Sequence record: PZ386974.1
DNA from: a phage
Reading direction: 5' to 3' (one strand)
Length of the DNA: 64,000 nt
Both the position numbers and the translations under genes were made by a program. Position 1 is the stretch's first letter. Each line of letters begins with the position of its first letter. Below are positions 690-61,201 of this stretch, piece after piece. The notes under the pieces were generated by a model. That model was not told the origin of the DNA. It was given only the letters and a program-made list of their open reading frames with translations, and searched no databases.

Positions 690-1322
690 TCACAGTACGT
701 TAGTTACAAGGGTAATGATTTCTTTGGACACATTAGGGAAGTCAATGTAAGTATATTTACCACCGATCTTAATCTTAACATCATTTTCAAGAGAAGTAAA
801 CAGCTTTGATTCAGTTTCTGACATGTTGTATGCAAAGATTCTAAGAGAACCATCTCGACGAATTTCGATCTGACGAATACCTAGAACTCGTTTAGCGAAT
901 CGAACTTCTAAGTTACTACGGTTTTCACCAATTTCTTTAACTTCAACTTTATCTTTAATATTTTCAAAAACAAAGTTTGCTAATTCATGCATTTCAGGAG
1001 TAACTCCACGTGCTTTTCTAGTGTTACGTTTCTGAAGAAGTTCTGGAGCATTTTCTTGGGCAAAGAGGTCTGCAGCTTTTTGGATAATATCCATTGCTTC
1101 GCCTGTTGCTACAAGTCCATCACCGGATTTTTCGACTAAACCTTTCTTAATCAATACACCAATGTTAGAGTTAACAACCGATGCATTGTATTCTGCTTCC
1201 AGAGCTTCACGGACATTGGCAGCAGTGGTGAAGTTGTTCTTAATGATATAAACCATTATTGCAGCAGTTTTTTCATTCAGAGCGTTTTCAGAAGCTTTGA
1301 TGATGTAAGTAACTTTAGACAT
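690..1322 (-). CDS. motA: MotA-like middle transcription activator
   Basis: 210 aa; N-terminus MSKVTYIIKAS matches recalled T4 MotA; located beside gene 52 as in T4; GGAGA SD. Confidence 0.75.
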   Translation of the reverse strand: MSKVTYIIKASENALNEKTAAIMVYIIKNNFTTAANVREALEAEYNASVVNSNIGVLIKKGLVEKSGDGLVATGEAMDIIQKAADLFAQENAPELLQKRNTRKARGVTPEMHELANFVFENIKDKVEVKEIGENRSNLEVRFAKRVLGIRQIEIRRDGSLRIFAYNMSETESKLFTSLENDVKIKIGGKYTYIDFPNVSKEIITLVTNVL

Positions 1323-1391
1323 TTTATTTCTCCAATTTGGGTGTTTTGTTTTGATAGGTCTATACTATCATGTTTGAAGCAAAAGTAAACT
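1314..1391 (-). repeat. 78 bp direct repeat copy A (promoter-leader cassette including first 9 nt of motA)
   Basis: Identical to 1635..1712 except one mismatch. Confidence 0.8.
1362..1390 (-). promoter_or_regulatory. early-type promoter cassette (GTTTAC-N17-TAGTAT) with flanking inverted repeat TGATAG/CTATCA
   Basis: Minus-strand GTTTAC at 1390-1385; -10 at 1367-1362; upstream of motA. Confidence 0.5.
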
Positions 1392-1427
1392 TTATTTTGG
1401 GCTCTTTTTCAAAAGCCCTGGTAAAAT

Positions 1428-1643
1428 TTACAAACTCATTTCTTTAATAAGGCTAATAAGTTTTGCCTTTTTAGAACGAAGCTTTTCTAAATGATGTCCA
1501 TTTGAACCGCGAACCACTAAAGAATTGATTTCAACTTCTAAGAAATTTAATTCTTCAACAAGTGCTTTACGTGGAGCATTCATACCAGGTTTAACTTTAC
1601 CGAAACGAGTAGTTGTGTTTTGGGTTAATTTCATTTTAGACAT
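1428..1643 (-). CDS. hypothetical protein (71 aa)
   Basis: ATG with GGAGA SD; shares identical 78 bp promoter-leader with motA. Confidence 0.5.
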   Translation of the reverse strand: MSKMKLTQNTTTRFGKVKPGMNAPRKALVEELNFLEVEINSLVVRGSNGHHLEKLRSKKAKLISLIKEMSL

Positions 1644-1712
1644 TTTATTTCTCCAATTTGGTTGTTTTGTTTTGATAGGTCTATACTATCATGTTTGAAG
1701 CAAAAGTAAACT
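1635..1712 (-). repeat. 78 bp direct repeat copy B (promoter-leader cassette including first 9 nt of 71-aa ORF)
   Basis: Identical to 1314..1391 except one mismatch; period 321 bp. Confidence 0.8.
1683..1711 (-). promoter_or_regulatory. early-type promoter cassette (duplicate of motA promoter)
   Basis: GTTTAC-N17-TAGTAT; upstream of 71-aa ORF. Confidence 0.5.
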
Positions 1713-1721
1713 GTTTTGTGA

Positions 1722-1752
1722 GAAAAATGCACAAAAGGGAGCCGAAGCTCCC
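1722..1752 (-). terminator. intrinsic terminator, UUCG-tetraloop hairpin GGGAGC/GCTCCC plus U-rich tail
   Basis: Stem 1737-1752, T-rich 1722-1736 on minus strand; downstream of gene 52. Confidence 0.5.
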
Positions 1753-1828
1753 TAATCATGTTTGTCCAACCAATACAGCCAAATCACTAGTACAGCTATT
1801 GCACCGAGAAATCCTAAGGCTAGGGCAC

Positions 1829-3154
1829 TCAAAGTGCCTCCAAGTCTTTAGTGTACTCGGTCACAACATCAGTAGACTTCCAATACTCATTTTCTTCTTT
1901 CTTAGCTTTAGCTTCTTCTGCTAGTTTACGTGCTTCGTCGGAAGTGATATGGAAGATGTTAAGACCTACCAGTTTATCGACATGTTCTTTATACATTTCG
2001 ATTTGTGCTAGCTCTTCAGTCAAAGCTTTACGAGTCTTGCCCTGAATCACAATTTCACCTGTAATAACTTTTTTGATGAAGTGTGCCTTAGCAAAAGCCA
2101 GTTTAAATGCTTTTTCAGATTCAAGGATTTTGTTGTCAATACGTTTCTGAACGTAAGTCTTACGGACTTCAACAAAATCTTTGATTAAGTCCACTACGTT
2201 ATCGTAGACAGCTAATTTACCCTTTTCATTAATCACTGTGATGTTTTGAGAACGGCGTTCGATGAGACTAAAATCTTTCATGATTTTTTCATGACGTAGC
2301 TCTTCATCATCAGGAAGCGAGTACTCTTTACGGAACTTCACTTTAAACCCAAAGCCGTGTTCACCACAATCATCTTCCCAAGAGATTAGACCTTTGTCTT
2401 CCAACGGGTCAAGAACCTTACTCACATACGTTTCACGGTCGAATTTATATGGGATTTCAGTTATCTGCATTTGAGTGCGAGATGTGAACTTATATGTTCC
2501 GTGAATCTCATAACGCCCATCAACTTCATGTACTTCACCACGGAATTCCGGGAATTCAACTTTTGGCTTAGTGACATTTTTACCTTGAAGAGCTTGTAAT
2601 ACAGCCTTTTTGACTGATTTAAAACTATGAGGCAGAATATTTGTTGCGTAACCGGTTGCAATACCAGAAACACCATTCAAAAGAACTGTCGGAATAATAG
2701 GAAGATAGAATTTTGGTGGAATGTGTTCTTTATCTTCATGAGCTGGAGCATATTCAGTATCTTTATATACGTTATAGAAATTTTTACTTACACGAGCAAA
2801 AATATAACGAGATGCTGCAGCTTTTTGGACTGTTCTAGAACCAAAGTTGCCTTGGCCATCTAACAGTGGATAGTTGTTGTTCCATGTGTTAGCCATCAAT
2901 GCACCTGCATCTTGTGCAGAAGATTCACCATGGTGATAACCTAAATCTGCAACACCACCTGCAATTGACGCAAGTTTATGAAATTTTTCTTTATTACCAC
3001 GAGCCAAATCTAACGCACGATGAACCACAAAACGTTGAACCGGCTTAAATCCATCAATCATGTTTGGGATTGCACGGTTTTCAACGGTGTACATCGCATA
3101 TGCTAAGGCTTCGTTATCAATAATACTTTTTAGATTACGAGAATTCAATTGCAT
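1829..3154 (-). CDS. 52: DNA topoisomerase II medium subunit (GyrA-like)
   Basis: 441 aa; N-terminus MQLNSRNLKSIIDNEALAYAMYTVENRAIPN matches recalled T4 gp52. Confidence 0.9.
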   Translation of the reverse strand: MQLNSRNLKSIIDNEALAYAMYTVENRAIPNMIDGFKPVQRFVVHRALDLARGNKEKFHKLASIAGGVADLGYHHGESSAQDAGALMANTWNNNYPLLDGQGNFGSRTVQKAAASRYIFARVSKNFYNVYKDTEYAPAHEDKEHIPPKFYLPIIPTVLLNGVSGIATGYATNILPHSFKSVKKAVLQALQGKNVTKPKVEFPEFRGEVHEVDGRYEIHGTYKFTSRTQMQITEIPYKFDRETYVSKVLDPLEDKGLISWEDDCGEHGFGFKVKFRKEYSLPDDEELRHEKIMKDFSLIERRSQNITVINEKGKLAVYDNVVDLIKDFVEVRKTYVQKRIDNKILESEKAFKLAFAKAHFIKKVITGEIVIQGKTRKALTEELAQIEMYKEHVDKLVGLNIFHITSDEARKLAEEAKAKKEENEYWKSTDVVTEYTKDLEAL

Positions 3155-4221: not shown

Positions 4222-4249
4222 TTTGTGTTCCTCGTGTTTCAGTAGGACT

Positions 4250-4279
4250 ACTATACCATAATCCTACCTTGATGTAAAC
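4250..4279 (-). promoter_or_regulatory. early-type promoter cassette (GTTTAC-N18-TATAGT), IR TAGGA.TA
   Basis: Upstream of 66-aa ORF. Confidence 0.45.
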
Positions 4280-4471
4280 AATTAAATTACATTAAAATAT
4301 GTTAAAGCCAACCATGTTCCAGTGAACGAACATGCGATGTAAAAACCCGTATCACAAATTGTTCTTAGTACAATAAGAAGTGCATTTTTCATAAGTACCT
4401 CAATACAATTGAAAATATTATACAAATCATAGGGATACTAAGCAACCATATTCCGATCCACATTTTAGAGC

Positions 4472-4735
4472 TCATATCTCAACTTCCGCGAGTTCCATAT
4501 ATCCTTTGTTGATAACCTCTTTAAGGTCTTTAGAAAGAATAACACTAAAATGGTCGTTCATATGCCCATTAACCAGACGAGTTATTTCGGCTTCAGATGA
4601 CATATAAGGCACGTCTGAGTCCCAATGAGATAGACCCAAATGGGTATAAATCATCCCTTCGTCATCTGCAGTGTTGTACATTGAAACAAATTCGCCTGTT
4701 ACTTTATGTTTTGCGTAGAAAAATTTAAATTTCAT
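4472..4735 (-). CDS. hypothetical protein (87 aa)
   Basis: ATG with AAGAGGA SD; own early promoter upstream. Confidence 0.45.
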   Translation of the reverse strand: MKFKFFYAKHKVTGEFVSMYNTADDEGMIYTHLGLSHWDSDVPYMSSEAEITRLVNGHMNDHFSVILSKDLKEVINKGYMELAEVEI

Positions 4736-4761
4736 GATGTTATCCTCTTTTAGATAGGACT

Positions 4762-4791
4762 ACTATATCATAGTCCTACTTAGTTGTAAAC
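4762..4791 (-). promoter_or_regulatory. early-type promoter cassette (GTTTAC-N18-TATAGT), IR TAGGACTA/TAGTCCTA
   Basis: Upstream of 87-aa ORF. Confidence 0.5.
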
Positions 4792-4803
4792 ACTTTTATG
4801 AAA

Positions 4804-5361
4804 TTAAAGTTGAAGATACCACCCGTTGTAGTTGCTCTTGCGGACGATTTTCTTTAGGTCTTCATGGTCTCCCACAAACTTTATAGAATAAGAGAAGACG
4901 TCAGGTGAGGTTTCTTTGGCATCTAATATAATAATGCAATCTGCGACTCGATGGTTCAAGAAGGGGCCTATATTGATTCCATTACCACCCGGATAATCAC
5001 CACTGTATCCTGTGGTAACCGAAATCCATTTAGAATCCATCTGATGTGTCTTGACTTCTACACGAATTCCACAATATTTGGGATGGGCTAACACGTCCCA
5101 TGCATACGTGTACGGGTCTTCTACATCTTCAATACCTTTATTAACATATCCGTCTAGCCAATTTGCTACTACATACTCTGCAAAGACCGCAACCTTACAA
5201 CGTCGAACTACATCTTCTTTGTTTTGGTCAGGATTTTGGCTCAGGGAATACCGAGCCGTGTCAGCAATCTTCACCTTCATTTCACTAGTCAAAAACTCAT
5301 TCGACAGGATAAATGTCGGAAGATTCTTCAGTCTCAACAGTCCCAAGTTCGTCTTTACCAT
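4804..5361 (-). CDS. possible DenB endonuclease IV (185 aa from internal ATG)
   Basis: Track ORF 4804..5424 trimmed to ATG at 5361 with AGAGG SD; 185 aa equals T4 DenB length; position between ndd and rIIB. Confidence 0.4.
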   Translation of the reverse strand: MVKTNLGLLRLKNLPTFILSNEFLTSEMKVKIADTARYSLSQNPDQNKEDVVRRCKVAVFAEYVVANWLDGYVNKGIEDVEDPYTYAWDVLAHPKYCGIRVEVKTHQMDSKWISVTTGYSGDYPGGNGINIGPFLNHRVADCIIILDAKETSPDVFSYSIKFVGDHEDLKKIVRKSNYNGWYLQL

Positions 5362-59646: not shown

Positions 59647-59675
59647 ATAATAACATAACCATAGACCTTGTAAAC
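59647..59675 (-). promoter_or_regulatory. early-type promoter cassette (GTTTAC-N17-TATTAT AGACCTATCA)
   Basis: Upstream of 175-aa ORF. Confidence 0.5.
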
Positions 59676-60102: not shown

Positions 60103-61083
60103 TTATTTCAGTAAAGTTACTTCGGAGATTTCCTCCCAACCATCTTTATCAGTTGAAATAAAATCTGCTACATAAAGAGCCGTACGTAATGATACATTGC
60201 GAAGACGAGATACGTTAGCCTTCATCCAGGACAATGCTTTGTACGTTTCAGCATCAGTCAGACCACGTTTCTGCATCATGTCAGTAGATAATATTACGTC
60301 TTCAACTCGAACCATAATCTCTTCATTAGAGTGTACTCCAAGGTCGAGATACACTGAACGAGATACTAAAGCTTGAAGGTGTGGGGCAAGTTTCGAACCA
60401 CGTTCTAACTCTTTATCGATATCAACGTTTGTAATGAAAACGATAGTACCTTCAAACTCAAATTCTTTATCAATACCCTTATCATCAAGATAAGATGACG
60501 CAGTGCTCCAACAAACTTTGCGTTTATCTCCGGTATCTAATGCTGCTTTAAGAAGGTTCAAGATATCCATATCAGAGAATACATCAACATCGTCGATTAA
60601 GAGAACGCTGTCTGCATCACGGTTGAGCCAAAGTTGTTCGTAAAGGCCGATACCAGAGATTTTACCATTAATGCTTTTGTATTTGATGAAACCATTATCA
60701 TTAGCATTATTAAGTGCTTTATCCAGAGAATACGTCTTACCAATACCGGCTGCACCTGAAATGATGAGTGAACGAATTTTGCCATCGATAATGCCATTCG
60801 TCATCATGTTCATTACTTTAAAGCGTTTGTTGATACGAGTTTTCATATCTTCAGTGCTTTCAACAACTGCAACTGGTGATGTCTCAACTCCTTCCATTAC
60901 GATGTCTGATTTGAAGACCCATACTCCACGTTCAGAACCATCAATCATAACGAAAATTTTACCATCACCTAAGTGGGAACATTCAGGATTAAGCTTTGCT
61001 GGGAACCATGTCTTTGTGGCGACATAAGAACCAGAGATTTCGTTATTACGATAGATACCTTTTTTGATTTGAACGTTGAACAT
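60103..61083 (-). CDS. P-loop ATPase (AAA-like), 326 aa
   Basis: Walker A GAAGIGKT and Walker B LLIDDVD; start set to ATG at 61083 with GGAGAA SD. Confidence 0.6.
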   Translation of the reverse strand: MFNVQIKKGIYRNNEISGSYVATKTWFPAKLNPECSHLGDGKIFVMIDGSERGVWVFKSDIVMEGVETSPVAVVESTEDMKTRINKRFKVMNMMTNGIIDGKIRSLIISGAAGIGKTYSLDKALNNANDNGFIKYKSINGKISGIGLYEQLWLNRDADSVLLIDDVDVFSDMDILNLLKAALDTGDKRKVCWSTASSYLDDKGIDKEFEFEGTIVFITNVDIDKELERGSKLAPHLQALVSRSVYLDLGVHSNEEIMVRVEDVILSTDMMQKRGLTDAETYKALSWMKANVSRLRNVSLRTALYVADFISTDKDGWEEISEVTLLK

Positions 61084-61121
61084 TTTATTCTCCAATTTAC
61101 TCATTTCGTTTCGATAGGTCT

Positions 61122-61149
61122 ATAATAACATATCCTAAAAGCATGTACA
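61122..61149 (-). promoter_or_regulatory. early-type promoter cassette variant (TGTACA ... TATTAT AGACCTATCGA)
   Basis: Upstream of P-loop ATPase gene. Confidence 0.4.
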
Positions 61150-61177
61150 CTACTTTTTAAAAATATTTTAACCCCCT

Positions 61178-61196
61178 AAAGGGACCCGAAGGTCCC
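61178..61196 (-). terminator. UUCG-tetraloop hairpin GGGACC/GGTCCC (terminator-like)
   Basis: Downstream of secreted-protein ORF; weak U-tail. Confidence 0.35.
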
Positions 61197-61201
61197 CACA
61201 T

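Follow-up and report, generated by a model that had tools for sequence, protein, structure and literature searches.

Why should a phage carry the promoter, leader and first codons of an essential regulatory gene twice – once in front of that gene and once, almost letter for letter, in front of an unrelated small open reading frame (ORF)? The question is posed by a 64,000-nucleotide (nt) stretch of DNA, hereafter the window (record PZ386974.1), from a T4-type coliphage of the genus Mosigvirus (RB69-like). Here, two cassettes at 1314–1391 and 1635–1712 precede, respectively, motA, which encodes the activator of middle transcription, and an ORF of 71 amino acids (aa), which we call ORF71. Between positions 600 and 2000 the window is 97–99.4% identical to about 150 Mosigvirus records, and the locus can be followed across many genomes. 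Our answer, held with good though not complete confidence, is that the repeat is a pair of PeSL-type cassettes – composite stem-loop/early-promoter/Shine–Dalgarno (SD) elements – that enclose a dispensable ORFan; the slot in which they lie extends, in Mosigvirus, from gene 52/motA.1 to motA and is variable in content. The initial annotation of this DNA had read the repeat both as a substrate and potential hotspot of recombination and as the trace of a recent insertion; the first part of that reading is supported, the second is not.

A near-identical pair of cassettes

The two cassettes form a direct repeat with a spacing of 321 nt; when the repeat was compared with the window by BLAST, 77 of 78 bases agreed, the sole mismatch being G at 1341 against T at 1662 on the plus strand. 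Both this extent, with its single differing base, and the make-up of the repeat – promoter, SD and ATG TCT AAA, in front of motA and of the unrelated 71-aa ORF – had been described correctly in the initial annotation. The repeat boundary coincides exactly with TTTAGACAT; its reverse complement, ATG TCT AAA, provides codons 1–3 of both genes, whose products show no relatedness past Met-Ser-Lys. A repeat search of the window returned a single direct-repeat family (1314–1399 and 1635–1720; 86 nt, 95%). The window yielded no tandem-repeat array and no additional full copy of the cassette, only partial matches of 14–46 nt at other early promoters and a 68% relative at 61081–61150.

Both copies are read on the minus strand and are built alike. 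Copy 1, serving motA, has its −35 hexamer GTTTAC at 1385–1390, TGn and a −10 box TAGTAT at 1362–1367, a leader at 1334–1361, the SD sequence GGAG at 1330–1333 and ATG TCT AAA at 1314–1322; in copy 2, serving ORF71, GTTTAC lies at 1706–1711, TAGTAT at 1683–1688, GGAG at 1651–1654 and ATG TCT AAA at 1635–1643. In each, the −35 and −10 boxes are separated by 17 nt ending in TGA (which supplies the TGn of an extended −10), the leader is an A-rich tract of 28 nt starting with AGACCTATCAAAAC, and GGAG is followed by the 7-nt AAATAAA and then by ATG TCT AAA (1320–1333 and 1641–1654). The sequence upstream of GTTTAC is A/T-rich, reading AAAATAAA in copy 1 and CACAAAACA in copy 2. This layout matches the design of T4 early promoters – UP element, −35, TGn and −10, within an extended consensus common to them (PMC2988021) – and each copy is predicted to act as a strong early promoter.

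Might so close a likeness be no more than what such promoters have in common? A pattern of the 49-nt core, allowing up to three mismatches, finds only two sites in the 64 kb and none in 100 dinucleotide-preserving shuffles. Among the 17 same-strand early-promoter cassettes of the window, the motA/ORF71 pair is 98.7% identical over 75 nt; the remaining 135 pairs average 42.7% (standard deviation 10.1) and never exceed 68%. Chance similarity was rejected on these grounds, and so was similarity through consensus alone, since a common promoter consensus cannot account for an identity so far above that of every other pair.

A fuller version of the same idea would nonetheless do without recombination at the repeats: the similarity would reflect the needs of a strong early promoter and leader, the distribution of ORF71 would go back to a single ancient event spread by recombination in the flanks, and the repeats would not be preferred sites of exchange. 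The extended consensus of T4 early promoters (PMC2988021) speaks for it, as does a TATAGACCTATCAA box that recurs in other cassettes of the window, but the identity of the pair also covers positions outside the consensus, namely the spacer and the 28-nt leader, to which the 68% ceiling of the other promoter pairs offers no parallel.

An artefact of assembly was likewise considered and rejected, the same arrangement being present in more than 70 independently sequenced genomes. An entry of two places per record in the megablast output had raised the suspicion of an extra locus; the simplest reading is an off-diagonal match between the copies in genomes whose two cassettes are much alike.

One repeat unit, present or absent

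If the repeats recombine, relatives should differ by what lies between them. About 150 database records hold the locus, and 22 Mosigvirus loci were compared for the length of the slot; the comparison is based on GenBank phage records because a scan of IMG/VR with MotA gave only two loci, both without ORF71. From the terminator behind gene 52 to the ATG of motA, 11 of the 22 loci measure 425–429 nt and carry ORF71, and the other 11 measure 105–110 nt – exactly one 321-nt period fewer – with a single cassette that has the upstream context of copy 2 and leads directly into motA. ORF71 at 95% identity or more is encoded in 76 of the roughly 150 records, or about half, and appears to be a dispensable early gene.

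Carriers and non-carriers are intermixed on the neighbour-joining trees of both flanks. F2, which lacks ORF71, nests with HX01 and ST0, which have it, and a single species label of the International Committee on Taxonomy of Viruses covers both APCEc01 (with) and JK36 (without). The two flank trees are also mutually discordant, general recombination being frequent; this last point suits the explanation by selection and flank recombination just described. F2 itself (NC_054913.1) carries Tequatrovirus in its taxonomy line, but its locus is 98% identical to Mosigvirus and stands beside HX01 and ST0 on both trees; the genome may be misclassified or mosaic.

A mechanism for the missing unit can be proposed. 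The homologous recombination machinery of the phage would act on the direct repeats of about 80 nt, and crossing-over between the copies would remove a unit of 321 nt, made up of ORF71, its stem-loop and a single cassette, to leave the ORF71-less arrangement. T4 recombination is reportedly efficient on homologies of about 50 bp or more (work ascribed to Singer et al. in 1982), and a direct repeat of 78 nt should therefore be an adequate substrate. The deletion variants envisaged by the initial annotation do exist in nature, as about half of the sequenced Mosigviruses lack exactly one 321-nt unit; this loss, the mixing of carriers on the flank trees and the swap of ORF71 for another gene described below support the recombination hotspot that it had suspected. 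For phage engineering and the quality control of therapeutic phages, spontaneous deletions of 321 bp are to be expected at this locus. The roughly even split between carriers and non-carriers would mark ORF71 as an accessory gene that is useful under some conditions, probably in particular hosts or against particular defences.

Probable exchange between the copies

Besides the gain or loss of the whole unit, smaller variants appear to be shuffled between the two positions. In HX01 and ST0, the upstream copy combines the spacer ATGTGC with the leader AAAACAACCAAATTGG, and the motA copy combines TTTTGC with AAATACTAATTTGG. In the window, by comparison, both copies have the TTTTGC spacer, the TAGTAT −10 box and a leader of the upstream type. 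Together with NHEP11, UGJNEcP2 and SA79RD, the window is among the genomes with recombinant combinations of haplotypes. Genomes differ in whether the −10 variant TAGTAT sits in both copies, in one of the two or in the only copy present. It represents a T-to-G change from TATTAT, present in both copies of the window (positions 1365 and 1686, C on the plus strand) and of NHEP11, in the upstream copy only of vB_EQ1 and APCEc01, and in the single copy of mar005P1.

Dhakavirus, the other genus in which ORF71 is common, offers a further case. In JS98 and VR5, the order of terminator, cassette, ORF71 homologue, hairpin, cassette and motA is that of the window, and the spacer reads TTCTGC in both copies of JS98 and TTATGC in both copies of VR5, a pattern that we interpret as concerted evolution. 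That each of these phages has its own spacer variant in both copies is hard to square with selection acting without recombination, and so is the recurrence of the same polymorphisms (spacer TTTTGC/ATGTGC, G or T in the −10 box, leader types) in either paralogous position across genomes. Exchange or conversion between the copies, or with co-infecting relatives, would shuffle the spacer, −10 and leader haplotypes in this manner, and could have homogenised the copies of the window to 77 of 78 bases.

Traffic into the slot across genera

The slot is not reserved for ORF71. In T4 there is a single cassette and the slot is empty; in position as well as sequence, copy 1 corresponds to the DNA in front of T4 motA and is orthologous to it (80% identity across 86 nt in Tequatroviruses). 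In the Dhakavirus JS10, an unrelated 75-aa ORF (ORF75) lies between the same two cassettes, with the same hairpin. This ORFan recurs at 97–100% aa identity, in the same slot, in about 138 records, mostly of Tequatroviruses. Between JS10 and the Tequatrovirus CM8, some 390 nt are 96–100% identical, as opposed to 50–76% in the flanks; the tract runs from a CTATCAA box just past the −10 through ORF75, the hairpin and the second promoter and leader to ATG TCT AAA, and CM8 combines a T4-type promoter upstream with a Dhakavirus-type promoter before motA. The Moonvirus Merlin has three ORFs in the slot, an ORF75 homologue and two others.

Judged by these identities, the JS10/CM8 tract was recently transferred between genera into the slot before motA, and since its identity ends inside the cassette, the conserved ends of the motA cassette appear as the junctions of the exchange. 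We propose that the −10/+1 box at one end and the SD with ATG TCT AAA at the other would serve as homology anchors, through which unrelated ORF cassettes such as ORF75 could enter across genera. The regulatory cassette of the essential regulator motA would in this way double as recombination homology, and the locus could be used as a naturally occurring site of insertion at which signals for immediate-early expression are already in place.

That the 321-nt indel and the ORF75 tract both end within the cassette is a further point against selection and flank recombination as the whole explanation, which, with the haplotype patterns, we consider unlikely. No greater weight can be given to a broader proposal that we find equally doubtful: that selection, too, keeps the copies alike, ORF71 needing the timing, dose and RegB-type shut-off of MotA, and that the motA promoter and leader form a cross-genus landing pad on which ORF71, ORF75 and others are swapped among Tequatro-, Mosig-, Dhaka- and Moonviruses. 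Were selection for MotA-like expression real, ORF71, as a small helical hairpin, might act as a partner in the MotA/AsiA/sigma-70 takeover or modulate it, or else be a host-specific accessory to it.

An old duplication, probably homogenised recently

How old is the pair? To the initial annotation it looked like a recent cassette-mediated insertion or recombination event; on the insertion view, ORF71 and a copy of the motA promoter, leader and start entered the genome together and the near-identity of the copies is a sign of youth. The identity of 77 of 78 bases invites this view, as does the absence of ORF71 from about half of the Mosigviruses, from RB69-type annotations and from T4. Against it stands above all the two-cassette architecture of JS98 and VR5. 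ORF71 is present in most of the Dhakaviruses sampled, and between the window and JS98 its nucleotide identity is 71.8% (third codon positions: 55.6%), as compared with 72.7% (56.9%) for motA. Because ORF71 is as diverged as motA and the arrangement is common to Dhakavirus, the arrangement should be older than the split of the genera; the duplication is, on this comparison, an old one that predates the separation of Mosigvirus and Dhakavirus. For the ancestral Mosigvirus, the Dhakavirus comparison likewise favours an old state with ORF71, a point on which the informative segment of the leader haplotypes is by itself too short to decide.

The copies are, moreover, less alike elsewhere. Alignment with related genomes, which the initial annotation had named beforehand as the check on its insertion, gave the same arrangement at lower repeat identity. 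In ten further Mosigviruses with ORF71 the copies are 85–95% identical and have distinct haplotypes, and in Dhakaviruses the figure for the complete cassette is about 70%; this largely agrees with the outcome that the annotation had itself named as a refutation. The closest relative of the window, vB_EQ1, differs from it at 13 positions over 103–2600, and seven of the 13 are clustered within copy 1 at 1336–1365 (minus strand), six of these seven turning copy 1 into the sequence of copy 2. Such a clustered patch, which raises the identity between the copies, is the mark of conversion or recombination, and the 77/78 identity is best explained as a recent homogenisation of an old duplication. The patch may have arisen either by conversion between the copies of one genome or by recombination with a relative already converted, of the NHEP11 type. 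A recent insertion is, with all this, very improbable. The comparisons show the anatomy of the cassettes, the exactness of the indel, the mosaics of haplotypes and the age of the arrangement, and from these we infer the direction and number of the individual events.

Comparison with PeSLs and morons

PeSLs were described as composite cassettes of stem-loop, early promoter and SD, conserved over about 100 bp and flanking ORFans (Arbiol et al. 2010, PMC2839356; Comeau et al. 2014, PMC4122927). In the model of their authors, an ORF is lost as a mini-circle when the cassettes on its two sides recombine, and recombination of this kind also permits insertion or replacement; mini-circles were detected, and the choice between homologous and site-specific recombination was left unsettled (PMC2839356, PMC4122927). 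PeSLs of the T4 group have the promoter TTTACW-N17-TAYWAT, a stem-loop just upstream, and the SD and start codon at the 3' end (PMC4122927, PMC2839356).

Both copies in the window have a T4-group early promoter, a stable stem-loop upstream, and an SD with start codon; they are intergenic and next to an ORFan, with the 321-nt indel in close relatives and replacement by ORF75 in JS10 and CM8. The −35 of both (TTTACT) fits the consensus fully, and the −10 box TAGTAT departs from it by one mismatch, G at the Y position; the TATTAT of relatives is a full match. The likeness extends to the order of parts – stem-loop, A/T-rich region, sigma-70-type early promoter, SD and downstream start codon, conserved over some 80–100 bp – to the exact loss of the ORF with one cassette in close relatives (compare ORF192 of RB49 with phi1) and to the replacement of the ORF by an unrelated one in others. 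Unlike published PeSLs, however, the downstream cassette here serves an essential regulator, motA, rather than another ORFan, and the repeat reaches three codons into both reading frames. Going beyond earlier pairwise comparisons, the present case also covers about 150 genomes, split roughly evenly, with mosaics of paralogous haplotypes.

Neither PeSL paper includes the slot between 52/motA.1 and motA (Mosigvirus, Dhakavirus, Tequatrovirus), and in the literature searched PeSLs are nowhere connected with RB69 or Mosigvirus. The locus is thus a newly documented PeSL pair, the process itself being already known, and would not surprise a T4 specialist. Its interest is that it shows, across a whole population of genomes, small early genes of T4-type phages being acquired, dropped and exchanged while the essential genes beside them stay intact.

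The accessory genes of lambdoid and other tailed phages known as morons (Hendrix and colleagues) also have their own promoter and a downstream hairpin, lie between conserved genes and are variably present; usually they are expressed from the prophage and are not flanked by a duplicated promoter and leader of the neighbouring gene. ORF71 resembles them in its own promoter, its downstream hairpin, its position between conserved genes and its presence or absence among relatives, but its promoter is of the lytic, immediate-early kind and is itself the recombination substrate.

Dedicated mobility – site-specific or nuclease-driven, as in homing or the integration of mini-circles by a specific enzyme, and aimed at the motA promoter – is highly improbable: PeSL authors did allow for site-specific recombination and saw mini-circles (PMC2839356, PMC4122927), and the same slot is used in three genera, but neither ORF71 (a helical hairpin without a Pfam or PDB match) nor the ORFan ORF75, the slot genes examined, is a nuclease or recombinase, and the junctions fall in stretches of common sequence, as homology-driven exchange predicts.

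Several observations weigh against the PeSL-type reading or parts of it. The mixing of carriers could go back to a single ancient loss or gain that ordinary recombination in the flanks then spread, with no repeated crossing-over inside the repeat, and no genome was found with ORF71 twice in tandem, as would be expected of the reciprocal product when crossing-over is unequal (94 records, 94 places). The patch in copy 1 could be an import from a co-infecting phage of the NHEP11 type and need not have been copied from the paralogous cassette. As for the signals, the −10 box of the window, TAGTAT, is one base farther from the consensus than the TATTAT of relatives; a generic sigma-70 scan of the window listed neither copy; and the activity in Mosigvirus of promoter, terminator and RegB is a prediction from sequence. 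Lastly, the hairpin after ORF71 lacks a U-tract, which makes efficient termination doubtful and some read-through from the upstream promoter into motA likely in genomes that carry ORF71.

Expression signals probably shared with motA

With its cassette, ORF71 would acquire the expression signals of motA: it is probably transcribed immediate-early and translated with the same signals as MotA. The leader is predicted to be unstructured (copy 1; RNA fold, free energy (ΔG) −1.7 kcal/mol, z +0.57). In T4, the motA RNA is a good substrate of RegB/S1, which cleaves at single-stranded sites of early intergenic regions with the 11-nt consensus GGAGRAYARAA (Durand 2006, PMC1702504), and the early promoter and RegB-sensitive leader of T4 motA are referred to Uzan et al. 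1990 in the passage of PMC3014915 that cites them. In copy 1, as in the T4 leader, the SD is GGAG and an A-rich tract comes after it, in RNA predicted to be single-stranded. The Mosigvirus site, GGAGAAAUAAA, fits GGAGRAYARAA at nine of 11 positions, deviating at positions 7 and 8, and lies within the predicted unstructured leader; it also differs from the T4 case in being present in two copies rather than one. A RegB-type shut-off common to the MotA and ORF71 mRNAs is plausible, and the regB gene of RB69 has been reported as divergent (PMC3014915).

Stem-loops beside the cassettes

Each cassette is preceded by a stem-loop. The one between the ORF71 stop and the motA promoter (1385–1432, minus strand; RNA fold) has a predicted ΔG of −17.8 kcal/mol and a z of −5.65, none of 200 shuffles being equally stable, and is labelled a terminator in the SA79RD record. 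Its inner hairpin, GGGCUUUU-GAAA-AAGAGCCC at 1399–1418 on the minus strand, has a stem preserved in six different sequences that represent three genera, one of its base pairs being compensatory. In the outer stem, 1422–1431, around the stop codon of ORF71, is paired with 1385–1394, which covers the −35 hexamer of motA; in read-through RNA or in single-stranded DNA this stem would sequester the −35 region.

Immediately upstream of copy 2, and after gene 52 and a small membrane ORF, lies a terminator-like hairpin, GGGAGC-UUCG-GCUCCC with a U-rich run (1736–1753, minus strand; consensus scan and fold), for which the minus-strand fold gives a ΔG of −15.7 kcal/mol and a z of −3.74. The records of SA79RD and KAW3E185 list it as a rho-independent terminator. 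The consensus scan placed this palindromic hairpin on the plus strand, where the tail reads AATCATGTTT; only on the minus strand does a U-rich run, UUUUGUGCAUUUUU, follow on its 3' side. Compared with Rfam, the leader and the hairpins gave no match better than E = 0.7.

Genes of the locus

In the order of minus-strand transcription, the locus comprises gene 52, a 26-aa ORF, ORF71, motA and an arn.4-like gene. Gene 52 (1829–3154), for the medium subunit of DNA topoisomerase II, is the conserved upstream flank, identified from the ORF list and related records. The 26-aa hydrophobic ORF (1752–1832), read from the sequence as (M)SALALGFLGAIAVLVIWLYWLDKHD, forms the upstream boundary of the slot, in the position that motA.1 has in T4; its TTG start overlaps the stop of gene 52 (TTGA). 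It is annotated at the same coordinates in HX01 and is missing from most records; ESCO47 and VR5 have different nucleotides at this position, yet they encode a hydrophobic peptide, with an ATGA overlap. Downstream lies motA (690–1322; 210 aa), whose product is given as MotA in over 100 related records, and the arn.4-like gene occupies 350–679; both, like ORF71 (1428–1643), come from the ORF list and lie on the minus strand.

For ORF71 itself, PHROG 6200, a family to which no function is assigned, is the sole family match; Pfam gave no match (best E = 0.16), and among 5.8 billion proteins only eight clusters were found, all of which fit the ORF71 of Mosigvirus and Dhakavirus by length and identity. 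An AlphaFold model (mean confidence score, pLDDT, 76) predicts a disordered basic N-terminus followed by a helical hairpin (helices 23–44 and 50–70), for which a Foldseek comparison with the PDB returned only generic helical-hairpin matches, none of them significant (E ≥ 0.8).

Other promoter cassettes in the window

Elsewhere in the window, a second pair of cassettes on the minus strand, at 4243–4296 and 4755–4808 (54 nt, 81%, 512 nt apart), brackets an 87-aa ORF (4472–4735) and small ORFs. Each of these cassettes has a stem-loop, TAGGACTA...TAGTCCTA, that overlaps the −10 box, as in the PeSL subclass of Arbiol et al.

The third relative of the motA cassette, at 61081–61150 on the minus strand, consists of GTGTAC, 17 nt, TATTAT and then TAGACCTATCGAAACGAAATGAGTAAATTGGAGAATAAAATG, and is 67–68% identical to the pair. 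It is preceded by the hairpin GGGGACC-TTCG-GGTCCC (61181–61197), and its SD context, GGAGAAUAAAA, is an exact instance of the T4 RegB/S1 consensus.

Finally, the early promoters whose −35 boxes start at 59675, 26704 and 13994 (minus strand) have in common GT(T/A)ATTATAGACCTATCAAC and a GGAG leader, with 64–68% identity over 75 nt. They point to a wider family of extended promoter/+1 boxes, which could constitute dispersed homology for rearrangements.

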